64,000 bases of DNA. It comes from Alphaproteobacteria bacterium. GTDB taxonomy: Bacteria; Pseudomonadota; Alphaproteobacteria; MPNO01; UBA830. The notes under the pieces were generated by a model, which ran no database searches, had not been told where the DNA came from, and was given only the letters and a program-made list of their open reading frames with translations. Positions 5,148-63,300 of the stretch are shown in pieces; the first letter of the stretch is position 1, and every line of letters begins with the position of its first letter. A program made the position numbers and the translations under genes. The stretch covers positions 192,001-256,000 of the forward strand of contig OZ219791.1 of assembly GCA_964291215.2 (NCBI GenBank). The letters are read 5' to 3'.

Positions 5148-6146
5148 TCAGGCTGCCGTCATGCTGAGCACGTCGTGAATGTGAATGATTCCGATCGGTT
5201 TGCCGTCCCTTACCACGAAGACGTTGGTAATCTTGTTGTCGTTCATCATCGCGAAGGCTTGGGCCGCAAGAATGTCGGCGCCCACGGTCTTCGGCCTCGT
5301 CGTCATGACATCGTCCGCCGACATGCGCAAAAGGTCGTTTTCGATGTGGCGCCTGAGATCGCCATCGGTGATCATCCCGTCGAGCGTGCCCCCGGGGCCC
5401 AGGACCCCGACACATCCGAACCTCTTGCTGGTCATCTCCAGTACGGTCTCGGTCATCAGCGTGTCCAGACCGACGAGCGGCATTTCGTGTCCAGCATGCA
5501 TGACGTCGGATGCCTTGAGCAGGCGCCGGCCAAGCTGGCCGCCCGGGTGCAGCATCCGGAAATCTTCGGGAGAGAAACCGCGCCGTTCGAACAGGGCTAC
5601 GGCGATCGCGTCGCCGAGTACCATCATGACGGTCGTCGATGTGGTCGGCGCCAGATCAAGGGGACATGCTTCGGGACTGTTCGGAATCACCAGCGAGATG
5701 TCGGCGGCGCGCGCAAGCGCGCTGTCGGGCCGGGCGGTAACGGAAACCAGGCGGATCTGCTGGAGCTTGACGTAGTGCAGGAGATCCGAAAGCTCGGAGG
5801 TCTCGCCGGAATTGGAGAGCGCAATAACGGCGTCCTCCTTGGTGATCATGCCAAGGTCGCCGTGGCTGGCCTCCGCCGGATGCACGTATTGTGCGGGCGC
5901 GCCGGTTGACGCGAGCGTCGCCGCCATCTTGCGCGCGACATGACCGCTCTTGCCCATGCCGGTGACAATGATCCGTCCGTTCACGCGTTCGAGCAGGTCC
6001 ACGGTCCGGACAAAGCACTCGTCGAGCCGCCCAGACAGTGCGCTCAGGCCTGCGATCTCGGTTTCCAGCACACGACGCGCCGACGCCAGCGCCGAGGCAT
6101 CCTCGCCAGCTTGGCAGTCGCGCAACTGGCCTGCTGAATTCGCCAT
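5148..6146 (-). CDS. kdsD: KpsF/GutQ arabinose-5-phosphate isomerase
   Basis: GMGKSGH, HPAEASHGDLG, APTTSTT, HPGGQLG, C-terminal CBS pair. Confidence 0.93.
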   Translation of the reverse strand: MANSAGQLRDCQAGEDASALASARRVLETEIAGLSALSGRLDECFVRTVDLLERVNGRIIVTGMGKSGHVARKMAATLASTGAPAQYVHPAEASHGDLGMITKEDAVIALSNSGETSELSDLLHYVKLQQIRLVSVTARPDSALARAADISLVIPNSPEACPLDLAPTTSTTVMMVLGDAIAVALFERRGFSPEDFRMLHPGGQLGRRLLKASDVMHAGHEMPLVGLDTLMTETVLEMTSKRFGCVGVLGPGGTLDGMITDGDLRRHIENDLLRMSADDVMTTRPKTVGADILAAQAFAMMNDNKITNVFVVRDGKPIGIIHIHDVLSMTAA

Positions 6147-34246: not shown

Positions 34247-35830
34247 ATGCAACCCAACACGGTGAACATCGACCGGTCCGGCACGGCGCCGGTCTTTACC
34301 TTTGCCGACTCGTTCAACGTCTCGACCTGCATGATCGATCGCCACCTCGACGAGGGACGGGGCGAGCGCCTGGCCTATGTCACGGACGGCGGGCAGGTTA
34401 CCTACGCCGAGCTGGCGGCCCGGGTGAACTGCTGGGGCCAGGCCCTTCGCGACGCCGGGATGGCGCCCGGCGACCGCCTGATGATGGTGGTGCGGGACTG
34501 CCCCGAATTTGTCTACCTCTTCTACGGCGCGATCAGAACCGGCATCATTCCCGTTCCCCTCAATACGCTGCTCCGGACCGCGGATTATCGCTACATGTTC
34601 GAGGATTCCGGGTGTAGCGCCGTCATCTACTCGCAGGACTTCGCCGGCGAGGTCGAGCCGGCGCTCGCCGAAGCGTCGCCGAAGCCCGCCTTTACCGCCC
34701 GGCTCGAAGGTCCCGGCGGCATGGCAGAGTGGGTTCCGGCGGGCCCGGTATCGATCGAAACGCACCCGTCAACCGCCTCGGCGGACTGTTTCTGGCTCTA
34801 CTCCTCCGGATCCACCGGCCGCCCCAAGGGCACCGTGCACCGGCAGCGCGACCTCCTAGTTAACACGGTCCTGTACACCGAACCGGTGATGGACATCACG
34901 GAGGACGACATCCTGTTCTCGGCGGCCAAGCTGTTCTTCGCCTATGGGCTCGGCAACTCGATGAGTTTTCCCCTCTTCTACGGCGCGTGCACGATCCTGT
35001 CCGACGAACGCCCGACACCGGAGATGACATTCCGCATCATCAAGAAGTTCCGCCCGACGATCTTTTTCGGCGTACCGACCCTCTATGCCGCCCAGTGCCG
35101 GGCGCTGGAGACGGAGACGCCCGACCTCTCAAGCCTGCGCGCCTGCATTTCCGCCGGCGAGGCGCTGCCGTCGCCGATCTTCCGCCGCTGGAAGGAAAAG
35201 ACCGGCCTCACGCTGATCGATGGAATCGGGTCGACGGAGTGCACGCACATCTTCATCTCCAACCTGCCCGGCGACGCCCGGCCCGGCACCAGCGGAAAGG
35301 CGCTGCCCGGCTACGAGGCCCGGATCGTCGACGAGGACGGCAACGATGTCGCACAGGGCGACGTGGGTCGACTCTGGGTTCGCGGCCAGTCGGTTGCGGC
35401 CCGATACTGGAACCAGCCCAAACGGACGGCCGCGACCATGCTGGGCAACGACTGGCTGAATACCGGAGACACCTACCAGCAGGACGAGGACGGCTATTTC
35501 GTCTATTGCGGACGTTCTGACGACATGATCAAGGTCGGCGGAATCTGGTGCTCACCGATCGAAATCGAGTCGCGCCTGATCGACCATCCGCTAGTTCTCG
35601 AGGCGGGGGTCGTCGGCCGCGAGGACGATGACGGCCTCGTCAAGCCTGAAGCCCATATCGTGCTCAAGGATCCGAATTCCCTGCCACCCGGCCTCAAGGA
35701 CGACCTTCTCGAACACTGCAAGGCGGGCCTTGCACGCTACAAGTATCCCCGCTGGTTCCATTTCGTGGAGGACCTGCCCAAGACGGCGACCGGCAAGATC
35801 CAGCGCTTTCGGCTCCGGACCGGGGAATAG
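34247..35830 (+). CDS. Benzoate-CoA ligase family protein
   Basis: LYSSGSTGRPKG, AKLFFAYGLGNS, DGIGSTE, KTATGKIQRF. Confidence 0.9.
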   Translation: MQPNTVNIDRSGTAPVFTFADSFNVSTCMIDRHLDEGRGERLAYVTDGGQVTYAELAARVNCWGQALRDAGMAPGDRLMMVVRDCPEFVYLFYGAIRTGIIPVPLNTLLRTADYRYMFEDSGCSAVIYSQDFAGEVEPALAEASPKPAFTARLEGPGGMAEWVPAGPVSIETHPSTASADCFWLYSSGSTGRPKGTVHRQRDLLVNTVLYTEPVMDITEDDILFSAAKLFFAYGLGNSMSFPLFYGACTILSDERPTPEMTFRIIKKFRPTIFFGVPTLYAAQCRALETETPDLSSLRACISAGEALPSPIFRRWKEKTGLTLIDGIGSTECTHIFISNLPGDARPGTSGKALPGYEARIVDEDGNDVAQGDVGRLWVRGQSVAARYWNQPKRTAATMLGNDWLNTGDTYQQDEDGYFVYCGRSDDMIKVGGIWCSPIEIESRLIDHPLVLEAGVVGREDDDGLVKPEAHIVLKDPNSLPPGLKDDLLEHCKAGLARYKYPRWFHFVEDLPKTATGKIQRFRLRTGE

Positions 35831-35834
35831 CGAG

Positions 35835-37184
35835 ATGGTGTCGAGCGCCGACACCGGAAGCCTCGTCGCGGCAGACGGCCTCTGCGACCTGACCGCCACC
35901 GAGGCGGCGCAGCAGATCGCGACAGGGGAGATCACCTCCGAGGCCCTGGTTGGCGCCTGCCTCGAACGCATCGGGAAATGCAATGGCGAGCTCCGCGCCT
36001 GGCGGTTCGTCGACCCCGACCTGGCACTCGAACAGGCGTGCGAGAGGGACGGGGCCGCCGGCGCCCGCGAACCGCTGCACGGCGTGCCGGTCGGCGTGAA
36101 GGATGTTCTCGACACGTTCGACATGCCGACGGAGTACGGCTCGGCACTCTACAGCGGACACCGGCCGGCGACCGATTCCAACTGCGTCGCGGCGCTTCGA
36201 AGAGCGGGCGCCGTCATACTCGGCAAGACCACGACGACAGAGTTCGCGAGCCCGGTTCCGGTCGGCGTGCGCAACCCGCACGATGCGGACCGGACGCCTG
36301 GCGTTTCCTCCGGCGGCTCGGCAGCAGCCGTCGCCGCCTTCATGACACCGCTCGCCAACGGCACCCAGACCGGCGGCTCGGTCATCCTGCCGGCGGCCTT
36401 TTGCGGAGTGGTCGGATACAAGGCATCGCTCGACGGTCTCGACCGGGGCGGCATCCGGAGCCTCAAGCCACATCTCGACACGCTCGGCTATTTCGCAAGA
36501 TCGGTGGCCGATATCGGGCTGGTCTACAGCGCGGTGACGGGAGAGAGCGCCGCCACAGCCGATACGCGGCCGCGCATCGGGTTATGCCGCACCGGAGCCT
36601 GGAACGAAGCGGAACCCGCGACGAGGACGGTGCTCGAGAATGCCGCCGCGGCACTCGGCGCGGCCGGCTATGACGTCGCGGACATCGACCTGCCGCCGGA
36701 GTTCGACGTCATCGAGGGCGCATTCCGGGTGATTTCCAATTTCGAGGGAAAACAGGCGCTGGCGGAAGAATACCGCACCGGCATCGACGGCATGAACCAC
36801 TGGCTTCAGGAGACAGGCAGATCATCCTGGACGCAGGACGACTACGATGGGGCGCGCGCCACGGCGGCGGCGGCCCGGACCGCCCTCGGCAAGATCTTCG
36901 AGACGTTTCCTGTCCTTCTGACGCCGTCGACCGCGGGAGAGGCGCCGACAGACCTCGAGGGCGTGTCGATATCGTCGTTCAACCGCACCTGGACGCTGAT
37001 GCACGGGCCCGCGATCACGCTGCCCGTCGCGACCGGCCCTGCCGGGATGCCGCTCGGCGTGCAGCTGGTGGCGCGTCCGGGGGCGGACGCCGCGCTGATT
37101 TCATGGTCGGCCGAAATCGCGAATATCCTGAGTCGAGTCGCCCCGGAAAATCTCACCCCGAGGCGCTCACGAAACTGTACATGA
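35835..37184 (+). CDS. Amidase (amidase-signature family); last 17 codons come from the inserted element
   Basis: PLHGVPVGVKD, GKTTTTEFA, TPGVSSGGSAAAV, TQTGGS, GMPLGVQ. Confidence 0.9.
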   Translation: MVSSADTGSLVAADGLCDLTATEAAQQIATGEITSEALVGACLERIGKCNGELRAWRFVDPDLALEQACERDGAAGAREPLHGVPVGVKDVLDTFDMPTEYGSALYSGHRPATDSNCVAALRRAGAVILGKTTTTEFASPVPVGVRNPHDADRTPGVSSGGSAAAVAAFMTPLANGTQTGGSVILPAAFCGVVGYKASLDGLDRGGIRSLKPHLDTLGYFARSVADIGLVYSAVTGESAATADTRPRIGLCRTGAWNEAEPATRTVLENAAAALGAAGYDVADIDLPPEFDVIEGAFRVISNFEGKQALAEEYRTGIDGMNHWLQETGRSSWTQDDYDGARATAAAARTALGKIFETFPVLLTPSTAGEAPTDLEGVSISSFNRTWTLMHGPAITLPVATGPAGMPLGVQLVARPGADAALISWSAEIANILSRVAPENLTPRRSRNCT

Positions 37185-37290
37185 CAGTCTCCCGTCATAC
37201 GGCTCTTCCTGCCCAAACCTGACGGCTTTTCCTGTGTCATCGGGTTCCTCCTGTTGTCAGTTGTTCCGATTTACCTCCTGTTGTCTTCGT
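37132..37290 (-). ncRNA. Group II intron 3' portion (collapsed DIV, DV, DVI), ORF-less
   Basis: GGAGGAACCCGATG..AAGCCG start region joined to GAGCCGTATGACGGGAGACTGTCATGTACAGTTTC (DV) and DVI ending CTCGAC. Confidence 0.75.
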
Positions 37291-37291
37291 G

Positions 37292-37560
37292 TCACACCTT
37301 GAGGCTGGCATTTTCCATGCGCAGCAACACCACCGTCGACCGCTTCCGCGCGTCGACGCCGGCCTCGGCAAGAAGCCCACCCAGACGCGCAACCTCCTGC
37401 TTCAGCGCAAGAGACTGCTTCGCCGTCCGCCGAACTTCCTTGATCTCCGCACGGGCAGCTGACAGCTTCTCACGATTGCTCTCGAAAATTGCCTTCACCC
37501 AAGTTGGCACTTTTTGCAGCCTTGAATTTTTATCACGTTGCGCGATTTTTTTGCGCCCCA
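37292..37560 (-). pseudogene. Coiled-coil transposase N-terminal fragment (IS66-like)
   Basis: REKLSAARAEIKEVRR..LLRMENASLK; context only. Confidence 0.35.
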
Positions 37561-37565
37561 CTTCC

Positions 37566-37820
37566 AGTCTGAAGTGCAACACCCGGCCCTCATCGCAGTG
37601 AGGGCGTAGCCCGAACGGAGATGAGGGCCGGGTGTTGCGCAAATTTTTCCCCTCTGCCCCTCTCGATTCCGCCTGGGAACAGCTTCAGTTCCTTCAACAT
37701 CGAGCTTATGCAACGCCTTTGTCGGCTTCAAGCCACTATTCCGCCGTCGCGCGGCATGGACCCTGCTGCACGTTGCGGCTTTGGAACGCAGATGGTCAGG
37801 GCGGTTTCACTTCAAGATTA
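37566..37820 (+). mobile_element. IS30-derived miniature element with a 19-bp-arm hairpin
   Basis: TGAAGTGCAACACC ... GGTTTCACTTCA ends; IR GCAACACCCGGCCCTCATC at 37576-37594 / 37620-37638. Confidence 0.5.
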
Positions 37821-38723
37821 CCTCCGTCGGCGATCCCAGGACTTTCCGAGTGTTGAGCCGCACCTTCTGAACATCTTCGTTGCATGTCGCGCGAAAGTCC
37901 ATGCCCTTCGGGAAGTACTCCCGCACCAGGCCGTTGGTGTGCTCATTCAAGCCGCGCTCCCAAGAATGGAAAGGCGAAGAAGAAATCTGCGTCAAGTGCG
38001 ACACGCCTGTGGTCTGCGAACTCCGTTGTCTGACGTGATTGTGTGGACCAATAGCGCACCAGAGCCGAGCAGGCGGATCATACCAACCGTGTCTTTCTGT
38101 CCACCCAGCAAGGTGTATTTCGTGGCACGAGCGACACGACAGCTCCACTGTGAGCTTTGCCGATGATGGCTCCCAGTCGCCGATCCGTTCCTTTGCCTCC
38201 GCAGGGCGCTCGGAAATGTCCACTCGGCCAGAATGGCATCCGCCCTTCCAGTTCGGCTTCTTGCCGCGCCGCCGAAGCTTCAAGACGCCCCCAGCTCTCC
38301 GATCTTCGGCGATCATGGATCCGTTCACGGCCCTCCAGTCGAAAACGGCCGCTGATCTGCTCGGGGCCCTCCCGCAGCTTTTTCTGAGCTTCAGCCCGAG
38401 GCGTCAACCGCCAGGAAACAGACGAAGCTGCCCTGCGTTTCTGCCATCCTTTGCGCCTGCTTGTAACGGTAACCCCGTCCCCCGGTGTTGCGCTTGATCT
38501 CCCGGAAAATTGTTGATCGGCCCAGCTGCCGAGCAATCGCACCTTGTGAAAGACCGCTTTTCTGCCTCAATCTGGCATCGCTCTTCGTAGGTGACGGTAG
38601 CCTTTGGACATGAACAAGCTCCCTCCATCTTGTACAGGAACTTTCGCCGCTGCTGGACAGCTCCGCAACATCATGCGTCTAAAAACACATGGCCACAGCC
38701 CATTATGGGTTGCACTTCACTAT
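37821..38723 (-). pseudogene. IS30-family transposase remnant
   Basis: TYEERCQI, ISERPAEAKERIGDWE, SWERGLNEHTNGLVREYFPKG; left IR TGAAGTGCAAC. Confidence 0.8.
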
Positions 38724-38809
38724 GAAACGGGGGAAGCGTTATAAGCCTGAGAAGATCGTGAGTTTGCTGCGGCAGGCGGAAGTCGTGCACGGGCAGGGCA
38801 TGTCGATGG
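38724..38809 (+). pseudogene. IS3-family orfA fragment
   Basis: KRYKPEKIVSLLRQAEV.HGQGMSMA, homologous to 46990-47073. Confidence 0.7.
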
Positions 38810-38872
38810 CGGGAGACTGTCACGTACGGTTCTGTGAGCGCCTCGGGGTGAAATTTCCCGGGGCGACTCGAC
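38810..38872 (+). ncRNA. Group II intron 3' end (half of DV plus DVI)
   Basis: CGGGAGACTGTCACGTACGGTTCTGTGAGCGCCTCGGGGTGAAATTTCCCGGGGCGACTCGAC. Confidence 0.75.
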
Positions 38873-39092
38873 CTGACGCCGTAGGCGCCCGGTGCCGACC
38901 CGGCAGGCCGCCCGGCTGTGATCCGGATCAGGAAGACTCCCGTCGCATGCCGCCCGGCTTGCGGCCGGCGGGTTGGAGCGTCCCGTGCAGGAGCTGTCGC
39001 GCCGCCCGTGCCAGGATTCGGCCGAACGGCGCCGGCACTTGTCAGAATCCCCAGCCGGCCTATATTCACACCCGTCCTTAGCCGGAGGTTCC

Positions 39093-46909: not shown

Positions 46910-47129
46910 TCGCCGCTCATCTCGGCATACTCCTTGCGCCACCGGTAGAAGGTGACCTCGCTGATTCCGAGCTGTCGGATCGCGTCCGCCATCGACATGC
47001 CCTGCCCGTGCAGGACTTCCGCCTGCCGCAGCAAACTCACGATCTCCTCGGGCTTGTAACGCTTCCTTGCCATCGTCGGTCCTCCTCTTTCCATAATCTG
47101 AGGGTGGACCACTTCAACGGGGAAGATCA
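46861..47129 (-). mobile_element. IS3-family (IS407 group-like) left end and orfA fragment
   Basis: TGATCTTCCCC end; MARKRYKPEEIV..TFYRWRKEY..RLKDLEKEN. Confidence 0.8.
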
Positions 47130-60310: not shown

Positions 60311-63300
60311 GTAACTGCTCACCCCCTGGTTCCGGCTTGATGTCGGGGTAGAGCAACAAACGAGGTTTCGTGGAGATTTGACACTGCATGCCGATTCGCT
60401 TAGTGGTGGTCATCGAGAACGACGGGGACCGCCAGTGGGCTACTTTCGATCGAAGGCGACGAGCGGGCTGTGCCAGCTGCTTCCGGGGCTCCAGCCCCCG
60501 CATGATCTGTATGTGGAAACGCATCTCGGAAGCGACGCGCTGATGAAGCGCAAGGCCGGGTGATGGCGACGGGCGGCGCGCGAGGAGTTCGAAGCGGCCA
60601 AGACCGCGGCGCTGCCGGCAAGGTGGCGGAAGAGGCCGTCATCCGCGTCTTCGTCATCCTGCTCGACATCATCATCGTCGTCCTTCTGGAGAAGACCACG
60701 CACGAGCCGGAACTCCGGTCTGCCGCCGTCACAGACGGACAAGAGCGTGCCGGAAGCAACGGCCCGAAGCCGAACCGGCAGATGGGCGACAACCTGCGCA
60801 AGATCATCGTCGAGGAAACGGTCGCAGCCTGCGACGCCTGCGGCACCGACATCGACGGCCCCGTCGATCGGGAGCGCCGCGTCCTCTATGACATCGTGTT
60901 CGAGGTCGTCGAGCGCCGCGCCGAGATCAAGGAATGCCCGAAGTGCAAGGCCCGGGGCCGGTTCCCCGACAACATCCCGTGCAGTGCGGCATCGGCATTC
61001 AGGCCCTCGTCATCAACCTGCTGGTCGCCCAGATGCTGTCCCTGCGCCGTCGCGCTCGTGCAGGCGATATCAAGCTCTCCGAGGCCTCGGCTATGCTTTC
61101 ACGATGCGTCATGGGAGGAGGCCGCCGTGGCGCACCTCCTGCAACGCCCGATGTCGACGATTTCGGATCAACAGTAAGTGGCTCCATGTCGTGGGACCCT
61201 GACGTGCAAGTTCCCGCACCGCAAGCGCGGCCGGGAGGCAAGAGATCGGCATCATCCCGTGCTACAAGGGCGTCCTGGACCTCGTACATGGGCCAGTGTA
61301 GCCACCAGCTGTGCGGCAGCCACCTGCTGCGCGAACTGACCTTTGTCGTCGAGGCTACCGCGCGACTGATGAAGAGCCTGCTCCCTGCCACAAGGTCAAC
61401 AAGAGCGCATCCAAAACCCTGAACGACGCCGGGCGCAAGCGCTACCGCACCATCAGGGCGCCAAGGAACTGCCCGACATCCCGACGAAAGGAAAACGTGG
61501 ACGCAAGTCCGACGCGCACAACCTGCACGAACGTCTCGTGAAACACGAAAACCTGCGCTTCATAGACAACCATCGCGGTAGGGAACCGGGTTACCCCCCG
61601 CACAGAACCGGACGTGCGCTGTTCGCTCCTCCCCTGACGACAAGGCGCTGGTTTGGCCACGGGCTCAGTGGGCAGCGGTGAGGGTGTCTATGTCCCCGGT
61701 GAAGTCCTTTTGGGAGCGTCGCCGAAGGGCACGCAGCTGTTTGCATTGGTGTATGAACTTCTGCAGGCTGCTTCCTGGAACGGCGTAGTAGCAGCCGTTG
61801 ATAACTCACCACTTGGCCGTTTCGTGCCGGTTATCGTGCCACCGCCTGCGCAAGGCCTCCTTGATCCGCCGCAGGGTGCCCGTTTGCGACCGACCCTGAA
61901 CCTGCCTTTCCTCGTCTGTTCGCAGAAGTGCGTCATGCCGAGGAAGTCGAACGTCTTGCCCACGCTTCCGGCGGTTCGCTCTGGCAAACCGACCGAACTC
62001 GATGATTTTCCGGGTGCAGTTCAAGTGGGCCAGTCTCTCCCCAAGGTCTCAGCGCCGCCCAGATGCTGAAAGCCGCACACGAAGTCGTCCGCATAGCGGA
62101 CAGTGATCGTGTCGCCTCCAGCCATCCGCTTGCGCCAGTGGTTCTGGAACCAGTCGTACGTAGTGCAGGTTCGCAAGGCGCCGCCCCTTGCGGTGTTCCC
62201 TTGCCAGTCGGTCCCTTCCATGACGCCGGCGTCACTTGATGATCAGACCCCCCGATCCGTTTCCCGAGCATCGCGACCAGATGGTCGCGGTTGTCGAAGG
62301 GGCGTCAACGATCCAGTTGACCTTCCGCCGTTCCACCGTGACGGCGCATGATGCGCCCCGGCCGGAAGCCGTAACTAAACCCGAGGAACTCCGTCTCGCG
62401 GCACCAGAATCACACCGCCCGCTGAAGAATCTTGTCCGAGGCAAGTTGCCCTCCATCCTCCTTGGGTATGTAAACCCTGGAGGCGCCCGCCCCTGTGCAC
62501 ACGGGCGTGCAGCAGTTCCACACCCTCCGCGTACGCTTGCCACACAACGCCCCGCCGCCGCGTCCTTCCTCAAGGAATGGAACGCATCGTGCAGAACGTC
62601 GACCGTCACGTGGTGGAGTAAAGACGCTCTTCCGGGTTCCTCTTCGCTACCTGCCGCCTGTGACCCCCGCTTCTGCGCGCGGCGCGGGCCAACCGCATTG
62701 CCCTTCCCTCCAACAACTCCGCAGGCTCCGAAGAACCCTTGTTCGCCGCCTTCAGCGGTACTATGGCCGAATCTGACTTCTCGTTCATCATCGGTTTACG
62801 GAATTTCCTCTGCGGCCCCTCCACGACAGAGGGGCAAGACCTCTCAGGTCCCTGCTTCGGCCCTGGTTCTCGGACCCCGCGGAGTTCCCCTCACCAACGC
62901 GGCTCGCAGGGTGTTGCCCACTCGGACGACCTCGGCACTCCGGTTTCAAAGCATCTCGTGGCTCAATAGCCTGGCCTGCCGCTCCCCAACGCTTCGCCTG
63001 GCGACGCATGGTTCACGGAGAAATTAGCCTCTCTCGGGACTTGCACCCGGCCACATTCCACCAGTTTGCCTGGCGCACCCGATGTCAGCTTCACCAACAA
63101 TGCCGGAGAACAGAAAATCAGGATGGCAAAGGTCAAGGTGTCCGGATGCTTCCGCTCCACGCAAAAGCATGGTGCCGGGGCTCAAGCTACCTCACCTCCA
63201 TGGCCGCACTCGGCTACAACCCACTCGTCGCCACCCAGATCGCCCTCGACGGAAAAGCCGCAGACATCATCAACGAGCACTATGGCCAATCAGAACCCAA

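Follow-up and report, generated by a model that had tools for sequence, protein, structure and literature searches.

This report concerns a block of 1741 bp in the genome of an Alphaproteobacteria bacterium (assembly GCA_964291215.2, contig OZ219791.1). The block lies at the 3' end of an amidase gene, within an analysed stretch of 64,000 nucleotides (positions 192,001 to 256,000 of the contig, forward strand) that we call the window and to which plain coordinates refer; other loci are given by genome and contig, with G000 for the present genome. Both outward-facing ends of the block are 3' ends of group II introns. Read from left to right, the interior holds the remains of one intron with its 5' exon, taken from an IS66-like insertion sequence (IS), followed by the tip of another repeat, an IS30-family IS, a fragment of an IS3-family IS and the truncated 3' end of a second intron copy of the same lineage (Table 1). 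CTGA stands immediately outside each end.

An insertion with a 4-bp target duplication at the end of an amidase gene

The initial annotation had described 37132-37194 and 38810-38872 as inverted copies of each other, identical at 57 of 63 positions, both pointing outward, ending CTCGAC and each bordered by CTGA. These coordinates and counts proved exact, and the inverted repeat extends to 67 nt (37132-37198 and 38806-38872, 60/67 identical). A chance match of 4 bp had been named as a caveat and an empty allele as the check. Such an allele is found in G001, the closest congener. Its amidase gene ends ..ADVLTP-stop, the site (...GCGGACGTCCTGACGCCGTAGAGTCC...) carries a single CTGA, and the longer read across it (...GAAATCGCGGACGTCCTGACGCCGTAGAGTCC...) leads from the amidase directly into a gene of the phosphoenolpyruvate (PEP)-mutase/isocitrate-lyase family. 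The G001 flanks are 90-95% identical to those of the present genome, and the amidase and lyase genes are also adjacent in G002, G004, G008 and others. Because the empty site has one CTGA and the two genes are neighbours in relatives, positions 37132-38872 were inserted with a true 4-bp duplication, and the match is not due to chance. The duplication can alternatively be read as 5 bp, since C is the last base of the intron and also the target base preceding CTGA.

The insertion altered the amidase. Its native end ..ILTP-stop now reads ..ILSRVAPENLTPRRSRNCT-stop and is encoded by inserted DNA, so that compared with the G001 end the last two residues are exchanged for 17 others. Both junctions are present in contigs from three sequencing runs of one study, one run representing a slightly different strain, and no older or empty form of the block was found in the contigs of these runs. 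No RNA data set was among the runs listed as carrying the sequence.

Outward-facing ends combined with a direct repeat cannot result from two independent intron insertions into opposite strands, and one staggered break is therefore required. The earlier proposal of an insertion at a staggered break, as opposed to ordinary retrohoming, is thus borne out by the two opposed 3' ends and the 4-bp duplication relative to the empty site; canonical retrohoming leaves one intron in one strand and no duplication, which is not what the locus holds. The same geometry speaks against a series of unrelated rearrangements that recreated CTGA by accident. The genome is extremely repeat-rich and the block itself has been rearranged, which would suit such an origin, but outward ends with a direct repeat need a real duplication, the empty site in G001 is clean, and a second locus shows the same feature (see below). 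We regard an accidental origin as very unlikely.

Table 1. Features of the block and its borders (window coordinates).
Feature	Position	Strand	Remarks
Amidase gene up to the insertion point	35628..37131	+	Pfam Amidase 4e-71; open reading frame (ORF) 35628..37184
Target duplication, left copy	37128-37131		CTGA; G001 empty site has a single CTGA
Left arm, 3' 140 nt of a group II intron	37132..37271	-	Rfam RF00029
5' end of the left intron, about 25 nt, GTGTGACACGAAGACAACAGGAGGT	37272..37298	-	23/25 identical to the sister copy C2:2576185
5' exon of the left intron, internal IS66-like fragment (positions 295-488, sense)	37299..37497	-	
Tip (~55 bp) of another repeat, CCCAAGTTGGCAC..., plus CGCC	37497..37555		
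IS30-family IS, frameshifted transposase	37556..38733	-	HTH_38 match; in-frame stop codons
IS3-family fragment, orfA codons 4-30, sense	38734..38812	+	relatives annotated IS3-like ISMex5
Right arm, 5'-truncated 3' 67 nt of a group II intron of the same lineage	38806..38872	+	
Target duplication, right copy	38873-38876		CTGA, then native CGCCGTAG

To the right of the block, about 140 nt (38885-39025) lie between the amidase stop and the lyase gene where G001 has AGTCC instead. This GC-rich, strongly folding stretch occurs nowhere else in the genome and reflects either an insertion here or a deletion in G001.

Both ends of the block are group II intron 3' ends

In the Rfam scan that the initial annotation had suggested, the left arm matched the whole Intron_gpII model (RF00029, domains V-VI) on the minus strand with 48.9 bits, above the gathering score of 40. 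It contains domain VI and the full domain V (37132-37207), together with what is left of domain IV, which retains the ribosome-binding site and ATG of a lost reverse-transcriptase (RT) ORF. Positions 37191-37271 are 95% identical to an ORF-less sister copy at G000:C2:2576832-2576912. The 5' end of the left intron (GTGTGACACGAAG...) also resembles the 5' ends of relatives from Rhizobium etli, Streptomyces and Azotobacter, and an internal deletion at a GGAG microhomology fuses it to the 3' part. The right arm has the 3' half of domain V and domain VI but no intron 5' part; the absence of the 5' half of domain V keeps it at only 18.1 bits against the same model, below the gathering score.

The intron ends six bases past the bulged A (GA|CTCGAC). 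When the intron is removed at the matching boundary from its relatives on plasmids of R. etli and Azotobacter salinestris, an open IS66 transposase frame is restored (KYADH|LPLYRQ and NWL|FSDTPKG), and this continuity of the exon frame in two relatives identifies both block ends as the last base of the intron. At each junction the intron sense strand joins the 5' end of the duplicated target copy, a polarity that would be expected if attack by the RNA 3'-OH or the start of complementary DNA (cDNA) synthesis set both ends.

Measured against a group II intron with a GUGYG 5' end and domains I-IV, the left arm has 25 nt of the 5' end and lacks domains I-III. Both arms are dead remnants and not functional introns. 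Since the left arm has kept its intron 5' end along with the 5' exon of a donor, it is a whole but gutted intron and not a repeat unit. The two 5' exons of the block, left and right, have no similarity to each other.

A solitary intron tail shows the same stagger

Three 3' ends of this lineage exist in the genome. Two are the arms of the block, and the third is a solitary domain VI tail of 38-41 nt between a gene end and a transfer RNA gene (G000:C2:2836585-2836626). The tail is missing in G001 and G004, where the empty site reads AATCCG|CTTGAAACC; the filled site reads AATCCGC-TTGA-GGC-(tail ending CTCGAC)-TTGA-AACC. It is 5'-truncated with an intact 3' end, is accompanied by three extra bases and a duplication of 4(5) bp (TTGA or CTTGA), and has no IS nearby. 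The block and the solitary tail, the two insertions of the lineage for which an empty site is available, thus show the same stagger, and as the tail has a single intron end, no attack by a second intron is needed for the stagger to arise. On the plus strand both loci read C|YTGA, but this was dropped as a common target motif since the primary strands differ.

The block is a single-copy insertion from a rare intron lineage

A search of the 6.15-Mb genome with an 88-nt intron end matched only the two arms, the sister copy and the one short tail. There is no second copy of the block in this genome or in four congeners, and none of the repeats of the block occurs in these four other genomes of the genus. 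No related intron was present in the 4 contigs examined from G001 and G016. The initial annotation had asked whether outward-facing pairs recur; the present genome has no other minus-then-plus pair of intron 3' ends within 5 kb, and a family-wide Rfam scan of 26 genomes, 5 of which have intron matches, gave no other outward-facing pair. A scan of the genome collection with a 15-mer of the intron end returned at least 120 loci with a real intron end in just 2 and is uninformative on pairing, because the word is too common in GC-rich genomes. For the sister copy (G000:C2:2576185-2576912) no empty site was found in G001, G002 and G004, where the locus is not conserved.

RF01999, an Rfam D1-D4 type, is matched by the sister copy as well as by the R. 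etli relative. Five intron copies related to those of the block were examined; the plasmids that carry them are from R. etli, Bradyrhizobium elkanii (two introns), Azotobacter and Streptomyces. Four of the five lie inside reading frames; the exon context of the Streptomyces copy is not readable. The copies in R. etli and Azotobacter sit within IS66 transposase genes, and of the two in B. elkanii one is in an IS5-type transposase gene and the other in the RT gene of another intron. As its relatives inhabit IS66 and other transposase genes, the IS66-like 5' exon of the left arm fits the habits of the lineage. The RTs of three relatives have about 410-420 residues with RVT_1 and a maturase domain. 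In R. etli and Azotobacter, whose exon frames can be read, the full-length copies have no flanking target duplication, and none is visible at a 115-nt tail of the lineage in E. coli/Shigella, which was viewed without an empty-site comparison. The second B. elkanii copy (NZ_CP126031.1, ~5300-5460, reverse strand) is inserted exactly at the YADD-coding site of the other intron's RT, forming a nested pair.

The initial annotation had offered two readings of the ends, a double-ended, intron-derived element able to carry cargo, and intron ends co-opted as terminal inverted repeats (TIRs) of a DNA transposon. In the latter case a transposase making 4-bp staggered cuts would have acted on both ends and the solitary tail would be a footprint of the same activity. 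The locus has the inverted repeats (67 nt, 90%) and the duplication of a DDE-type transposon, and the solitary tail shares the duplication length. However, no transposase acting on the block ends was found, the sole transposase inside being that of the IS30-family element, which is frameshifted, has its own repeats and makes 3-bp duplications. The block exists as one copy and is absent from the four congeners, its ends start GT...AC, unlike the tips of IS3-family elements, and at the left end the homology to the intron runs far past the repeat to the intron's own 5' end, where the donor 5' exon follows, as in a real intron. Hence the TIR reading is close to refuted; we would hardly expect it to be true. 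The idea of a cargo-carrying element did not hold up either, given the single copy, the absence from congeners, the decayed arms and the lack of a transposase for the ends. Nor do the ends enclose an intact RT or transposase, as the RT ORF has been lost and the IS30-family transposase is frameshifted.

The interior of the block is a mosaic

The repeat to which the 5' exon of the left intron belongs has at least 35 copies with 88-93% identity. The fragment is not an IS tip, as other copies continue beyond both its ends; the complete IS66-like element measures 2.2 kb, with GTAAGCGTTCG tips and 8-bp duplications. The adjoining CCCAAGTTGGCAC-tipped repeat is found at IS66-like position 295 at two other loci as well. 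The IS30-family IS has 41 full-length copies in the genome (92-97% identity). At least 7 of the other copies have 3-bp direct repeats when inspected by eye, and the copy in the block has none (flanks ..GCG / AAG..), which therefore indicates a later rearrangement within the block, by recombination or deletion. The IS3-family fragment of 79 bp is 95% identical to 46986-47064 of the window, 8 kb away, and its junction with the right arm falls inside a 25-nt stretch of imperfect homology (ATG(G/A)CGG).

Two side observations concern these repeats. The CCCAAGTTGGCAC-tipped repeat (window 37497-37551; G000:C2:2235061-2235117, C2:946225-946245 and C1:354290) has two recurrent insertion positions in IS66-like elements, 295 and about 487, and the latter coincides to within 1-2 nt with the 5' junction of the left intron. 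The repeat load of the genome is heavy in general, with at least 17 IS66-like copies, all degenerate-looking, and with a 1.2-kb IS to which the majority of 215 BLAST matches belong.

The IS3-family fragment raises the question whether the duplication was made by an IS. In such a course of nested events, an IS3-family (IS407-like) insertion would have generated the 4-bp duplication and introns would then have homed outward onto both of its tips. The IS tips and the greater part of both introns would afterwards have been lost by decay, through deletions, insertions of IS30-family elements and a patch brought in by homologous recombination from a different intron...IS30 locus. A relative annotated as ISMex5 shows a 4-bp duplication (GCAA) in one of the two copies examined. 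There is also a natural precedent for introns in such places: the available text of Martinez-Rodriguez et al. (2014; PMC4615759) describes RmInt2 in the inverted repeats of ISRm17 in Sinorhizobium meliloti, with two sites per IS. A patch by recombination between two intron...IS30 loci would moreover account for the IS66-like exon and also for the missing duplication of the IS30 copy. Yet neither intron has an IS tip beside it. The 5' end of the left intron abuts an internal IS66-like fragment, and the capped IS would consequently need at least one additional exact replacement or a two-intron deletion. The solitary tail shares the 4(5)-bp duplication although no IS is present there, none of the three IS3-like left tips in the genome carries an intron, and among the relatives with a readable 5' exon the intron lies inside ORFs (4/5 copies) and not at tips. 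A metagenome scan for an IS3-type tip joined to the intron 5' end returned at least 120 loci, with an intron in 0/120 by BLAST and 0/20 by Rfam; the pattern is narrow and the scan is weak evidence, its matches being chance or coding sequence. Taken together, we consider an IS capped by introns unlikely, though it is the main rival to the origin proposed below.

Orientation and 3' exons point to the left arm as the probable first product

The genome has many further introns. These are of another family (Rfam D1-D4 type RF02005), which we call the main family. On contig C2, 13 of its 16 minus-strand copies lie below 0.45 Mb, and all 30 plus-strand copies lie above 0.73 Mb. This bias suggests replication-linked insertion and a replication landmark between 0.45 and 0.73 Mb. 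A strand bias of this kind is expected for endonuclease-less introns that depend on replication forks. The block lies at 0.23 Mb, with its left arm in the locally favoured orientation and its right arm in the disfavoured one. The 3' exon of the left arm starts with T (TCAG), as do those of the solitary tail and of the five relatives' introns, and that of the right arm starts with C. On the grounds of the T and the favoured orientation, the left arm was probably the primary cDNA and preceded the right arm.

These asymmetries also bear on the proposal, made in the initial annotation, that two introns attacked opposite strands of one site. Here two intron ribonucleoproteins would have reverse-spliced 4 bp apart, each cut priming the cDNA of the other. 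The geometry and polarity of the block are as this would predict, and it would explain how the second strand was opened in an endonuclease-less lineage. A second attack is unneeded, however, as the solitary tail shows the same 4(5)-bp stagger with one intron end. The right arm, moreover, is in the disfavoured orientation and has a 3' exon that begins with C where the left arm, the tail and the five relatives have T, and its 5' exon does not resemble that of the left arm. In our estimation a double attack is improbable.

Several further features of the main family were seen. One copy is located in the window itself (61572-63100, minus strand; RF02005 with 66.6 bits, weak domain V-VI match at 61572-61630), in the locally favoured orientation. 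The family has ~60 3' ends that form a 5'-truncation ladder, with alignments starting anywhere from position 232 (the full 5' end) to a 38-nt tail, and around 25 listed 5'-truncated copies no duplications were evident by eye, with no empty-site comparison. At 7 junctions checked, copies are joined seamlessly head to tail (...CCCTACCGCAAT|GTGCGCCAGG...); such tandems are found at G000:C2:1319811-1324961, 153803-157336, 123815-126933, 1514779-1517963 and 2501350-2503043. Candidate origins are repeated homing upstream of a resident copy (empty and occupied sites of the family alike have G as the first base of the 3' exon) or concatemeric cDNA.

One aberrant reverse-transcription event as a possible origin of the block

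The reading that we favour, with chances that we regard as evenly balanced, is that the block, instead of being a new transposon, is the product of one aberrant event of target-primed reverse transcription at a 4-nt staggered break. The insertion with its duplication and exact ends, the mosaic, the single copy and the second case of duplication are observed; from them we infer each of the following steps, as well as the order of the arms. An intron RNA of the endonuclease-less lineage would first have become attached through its 3' end to the minus strand (CGGCG|TCAGG) by partial reverse splicing, leaving the 5' exon unligated. With the plus strand open 4 nt further on (AATATC|CTGA), its 3'-OH would then have copied TCAG followed by the intron RNA, and the left arm would be the resulting cDNA, extended through the intron 5' end into attached or bound RNA of the IS66-like donor 5' exon. 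That the left arm copies a donor 5' exon and intron, and is not an intron sitting on an IS tip, is suggested by the fusion of its 5' end to an internal IS66-like fragment in sense orientation. Filling-in of the 4-nt overhang at the other DNA end would have made the duplication. The filled end was likely extended by 67 nt on the 3' end of a second intron RNA, giving the right arm, and synthesis may then have switched at short homology to an IS3-family template; at the solitary locus, the filled end would simply have been joined to an abortive cDNA of 38 nt. Finally the two cDNA ends would have been joined, and later IS30-family insertion or recombination and the internal intron deletion would have reshaped the interior. 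The internal junctions at microhomologies (GGAG and the stretch between IS3 fragment and right arm) count in favour of this course.

Every biochemical step of this scheme has a precedent in the available text of White and Lambowitz (2012; PMC3280974), which covers partial reverse splicing, a staggered break and template switching. Several points nevertheless weigh against it. An endonuclease domain is absent from all three relatives' RTs and from the one main-family ORF scanned. Domain I is missing from both arms, so there is no target base pairing to compare; the loop of exon-binding site 1 could be placed by covariation in 4-5 of 6 relatives, and that of the sister copy pairs with none of the candidate exons. 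A donor locus, namely an IS66-like element with the intron at position 488, was not found in the present genome. Three of the five repeated bases at the solitary tail (TGA) can also be aligned as intron sequence (TGAG), so that this duplication counts for slightly less, and there are just two events in one genome. Ku (PF02735) has no match in this genome, which is 99% complete; classical end joining would therefore be unavailable and any end joining Ku-independent. The IS3-family fragment, from a family in which a relative makes 4-bp duplications, is what an IS capped by introns would predict; in the comparison of duplication lengths, ISMex5 has 4 bp in one of two copies and the solitary tail 4(5) bp without an IS. 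Lastly, a literature search, which did not cover supplements, found no published description of a double-ended intron product.

Tentatively, and with something less than an even chance in our view, the two footprints can be taken further: the endonuclease-less lineage would integrate in the manner of long interspersed nuclear elements (LINEs), at least when integration goes wrong. This would mean a 4-nt staggered break, target duplications and tails truncated at the 5' end. One of the insertions would in addition be twin-primed and head-to-head, and would have taken 5'-exon and other template sequence with it.

Comparison with known systems

The closest biochemical counterpart is the retrohoming of linear intron RNA. 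[quoted passage not shown] The block resembles this pathway in the exact join between intron 3' end and 3' exon, the staggered break with a 5' overhang, the cDNA made from the opposite strand, the extra bases or microhomology at junctions and the template switching of the RT. In the pathway as set out there, the overhang is 9 nt long, is produced by the intron's own endonuclease and is lost, so that no duplication and one intron end result. In the block, by contrast, a 4-nt overhang would have been filled in to give a duplication, the lineage has no endonuclease domain, and the second DNA end also has an intron 3' end.

The head-to-head layout recalls the twin priming of LINE-1 (L1), which Ostertag and Kazazian are said to have described in 2001. 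There, reportedly, both ends of a staggered break prime cDNA, with head-to-head products, target duplication and 5' truncation, as in the event proposed for the block. The second primer is said to anneal inside the same RNA, whereas the second cDNA of the block would begin right at the 3' terminus of an intron RNA. Unlike L1, moreover, the element in the block is a bacterial ribozyme intron. Features of the non-long-terminal-repeat (non-LTR, LINE) type are present in both footprints, namely duplication and 5' truncation with an intact 3' end, and the block adds the head-to-head product. The resemblance to target-primed reverse transcription of the LINE type would be one in the way of working and not of membership.

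RmInt2 in ISRm17 shares the layout of the block, in that the intron is present at both IS ends in opposite orientation and the duplication made by the IS flanks the composite; the available text of that study also carries a remark on the lagging strand in intron insertion (PMC4615759). In S. meliloti, as described there, the IS is present and the intron lies within its repeats, whereas no IS tip is next to the intron in the block: directly inside the intron 5' end, where an IS terminal repeat would be expected, lies the IS66-like exon (positions 295-488). G2L4, a group II intron-like RT, is reported in the available text to repair double-strand breaks by microhomology-mediated end joining (bioRxiv 10.1101/2022.03.14.484287). 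It has in common with the proposed event a group II-type RT acting at DNA breaks and the use of microhomology; unlike the block, G2L4 is free-standing and, as far as that text goes, leaves no intron sequence at the repaired site.

Our literature search, with the same limit as to supplements, found nothing that links group II introns to such target duplications or to twin priming. To our knowledge, bacterial group II intron insertions have been described as clean and duplication-free. What would be new is that a group II intron, on integrating, leaves behind target duplications, truncated tails and a head-to-head product.

Implications

If the block is instead a decayed IS capped by introns, it is ordinary. 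If it arose by aberrant intron integration, such integration can create staggered-break duplications and bring foreign sequence into the end of a gene. It can also mimic a transposon with inverted ends, which matters for the annotation of repeat-rich genomes. The block would further provide a bacterial case for the handling of the second DNA end in target-primed reverse transcription. Group II introns are regarded as the ancestors of non-LTR retrotransposons. The rare lineage described here has left two footprints of the LINE kind, both compared with empty sites in congeners, and if its integration is indeed LINE-like, they would be a trace, left naturally in a bacterium, of the transition between group II introns and non-LTR retrotransposons.

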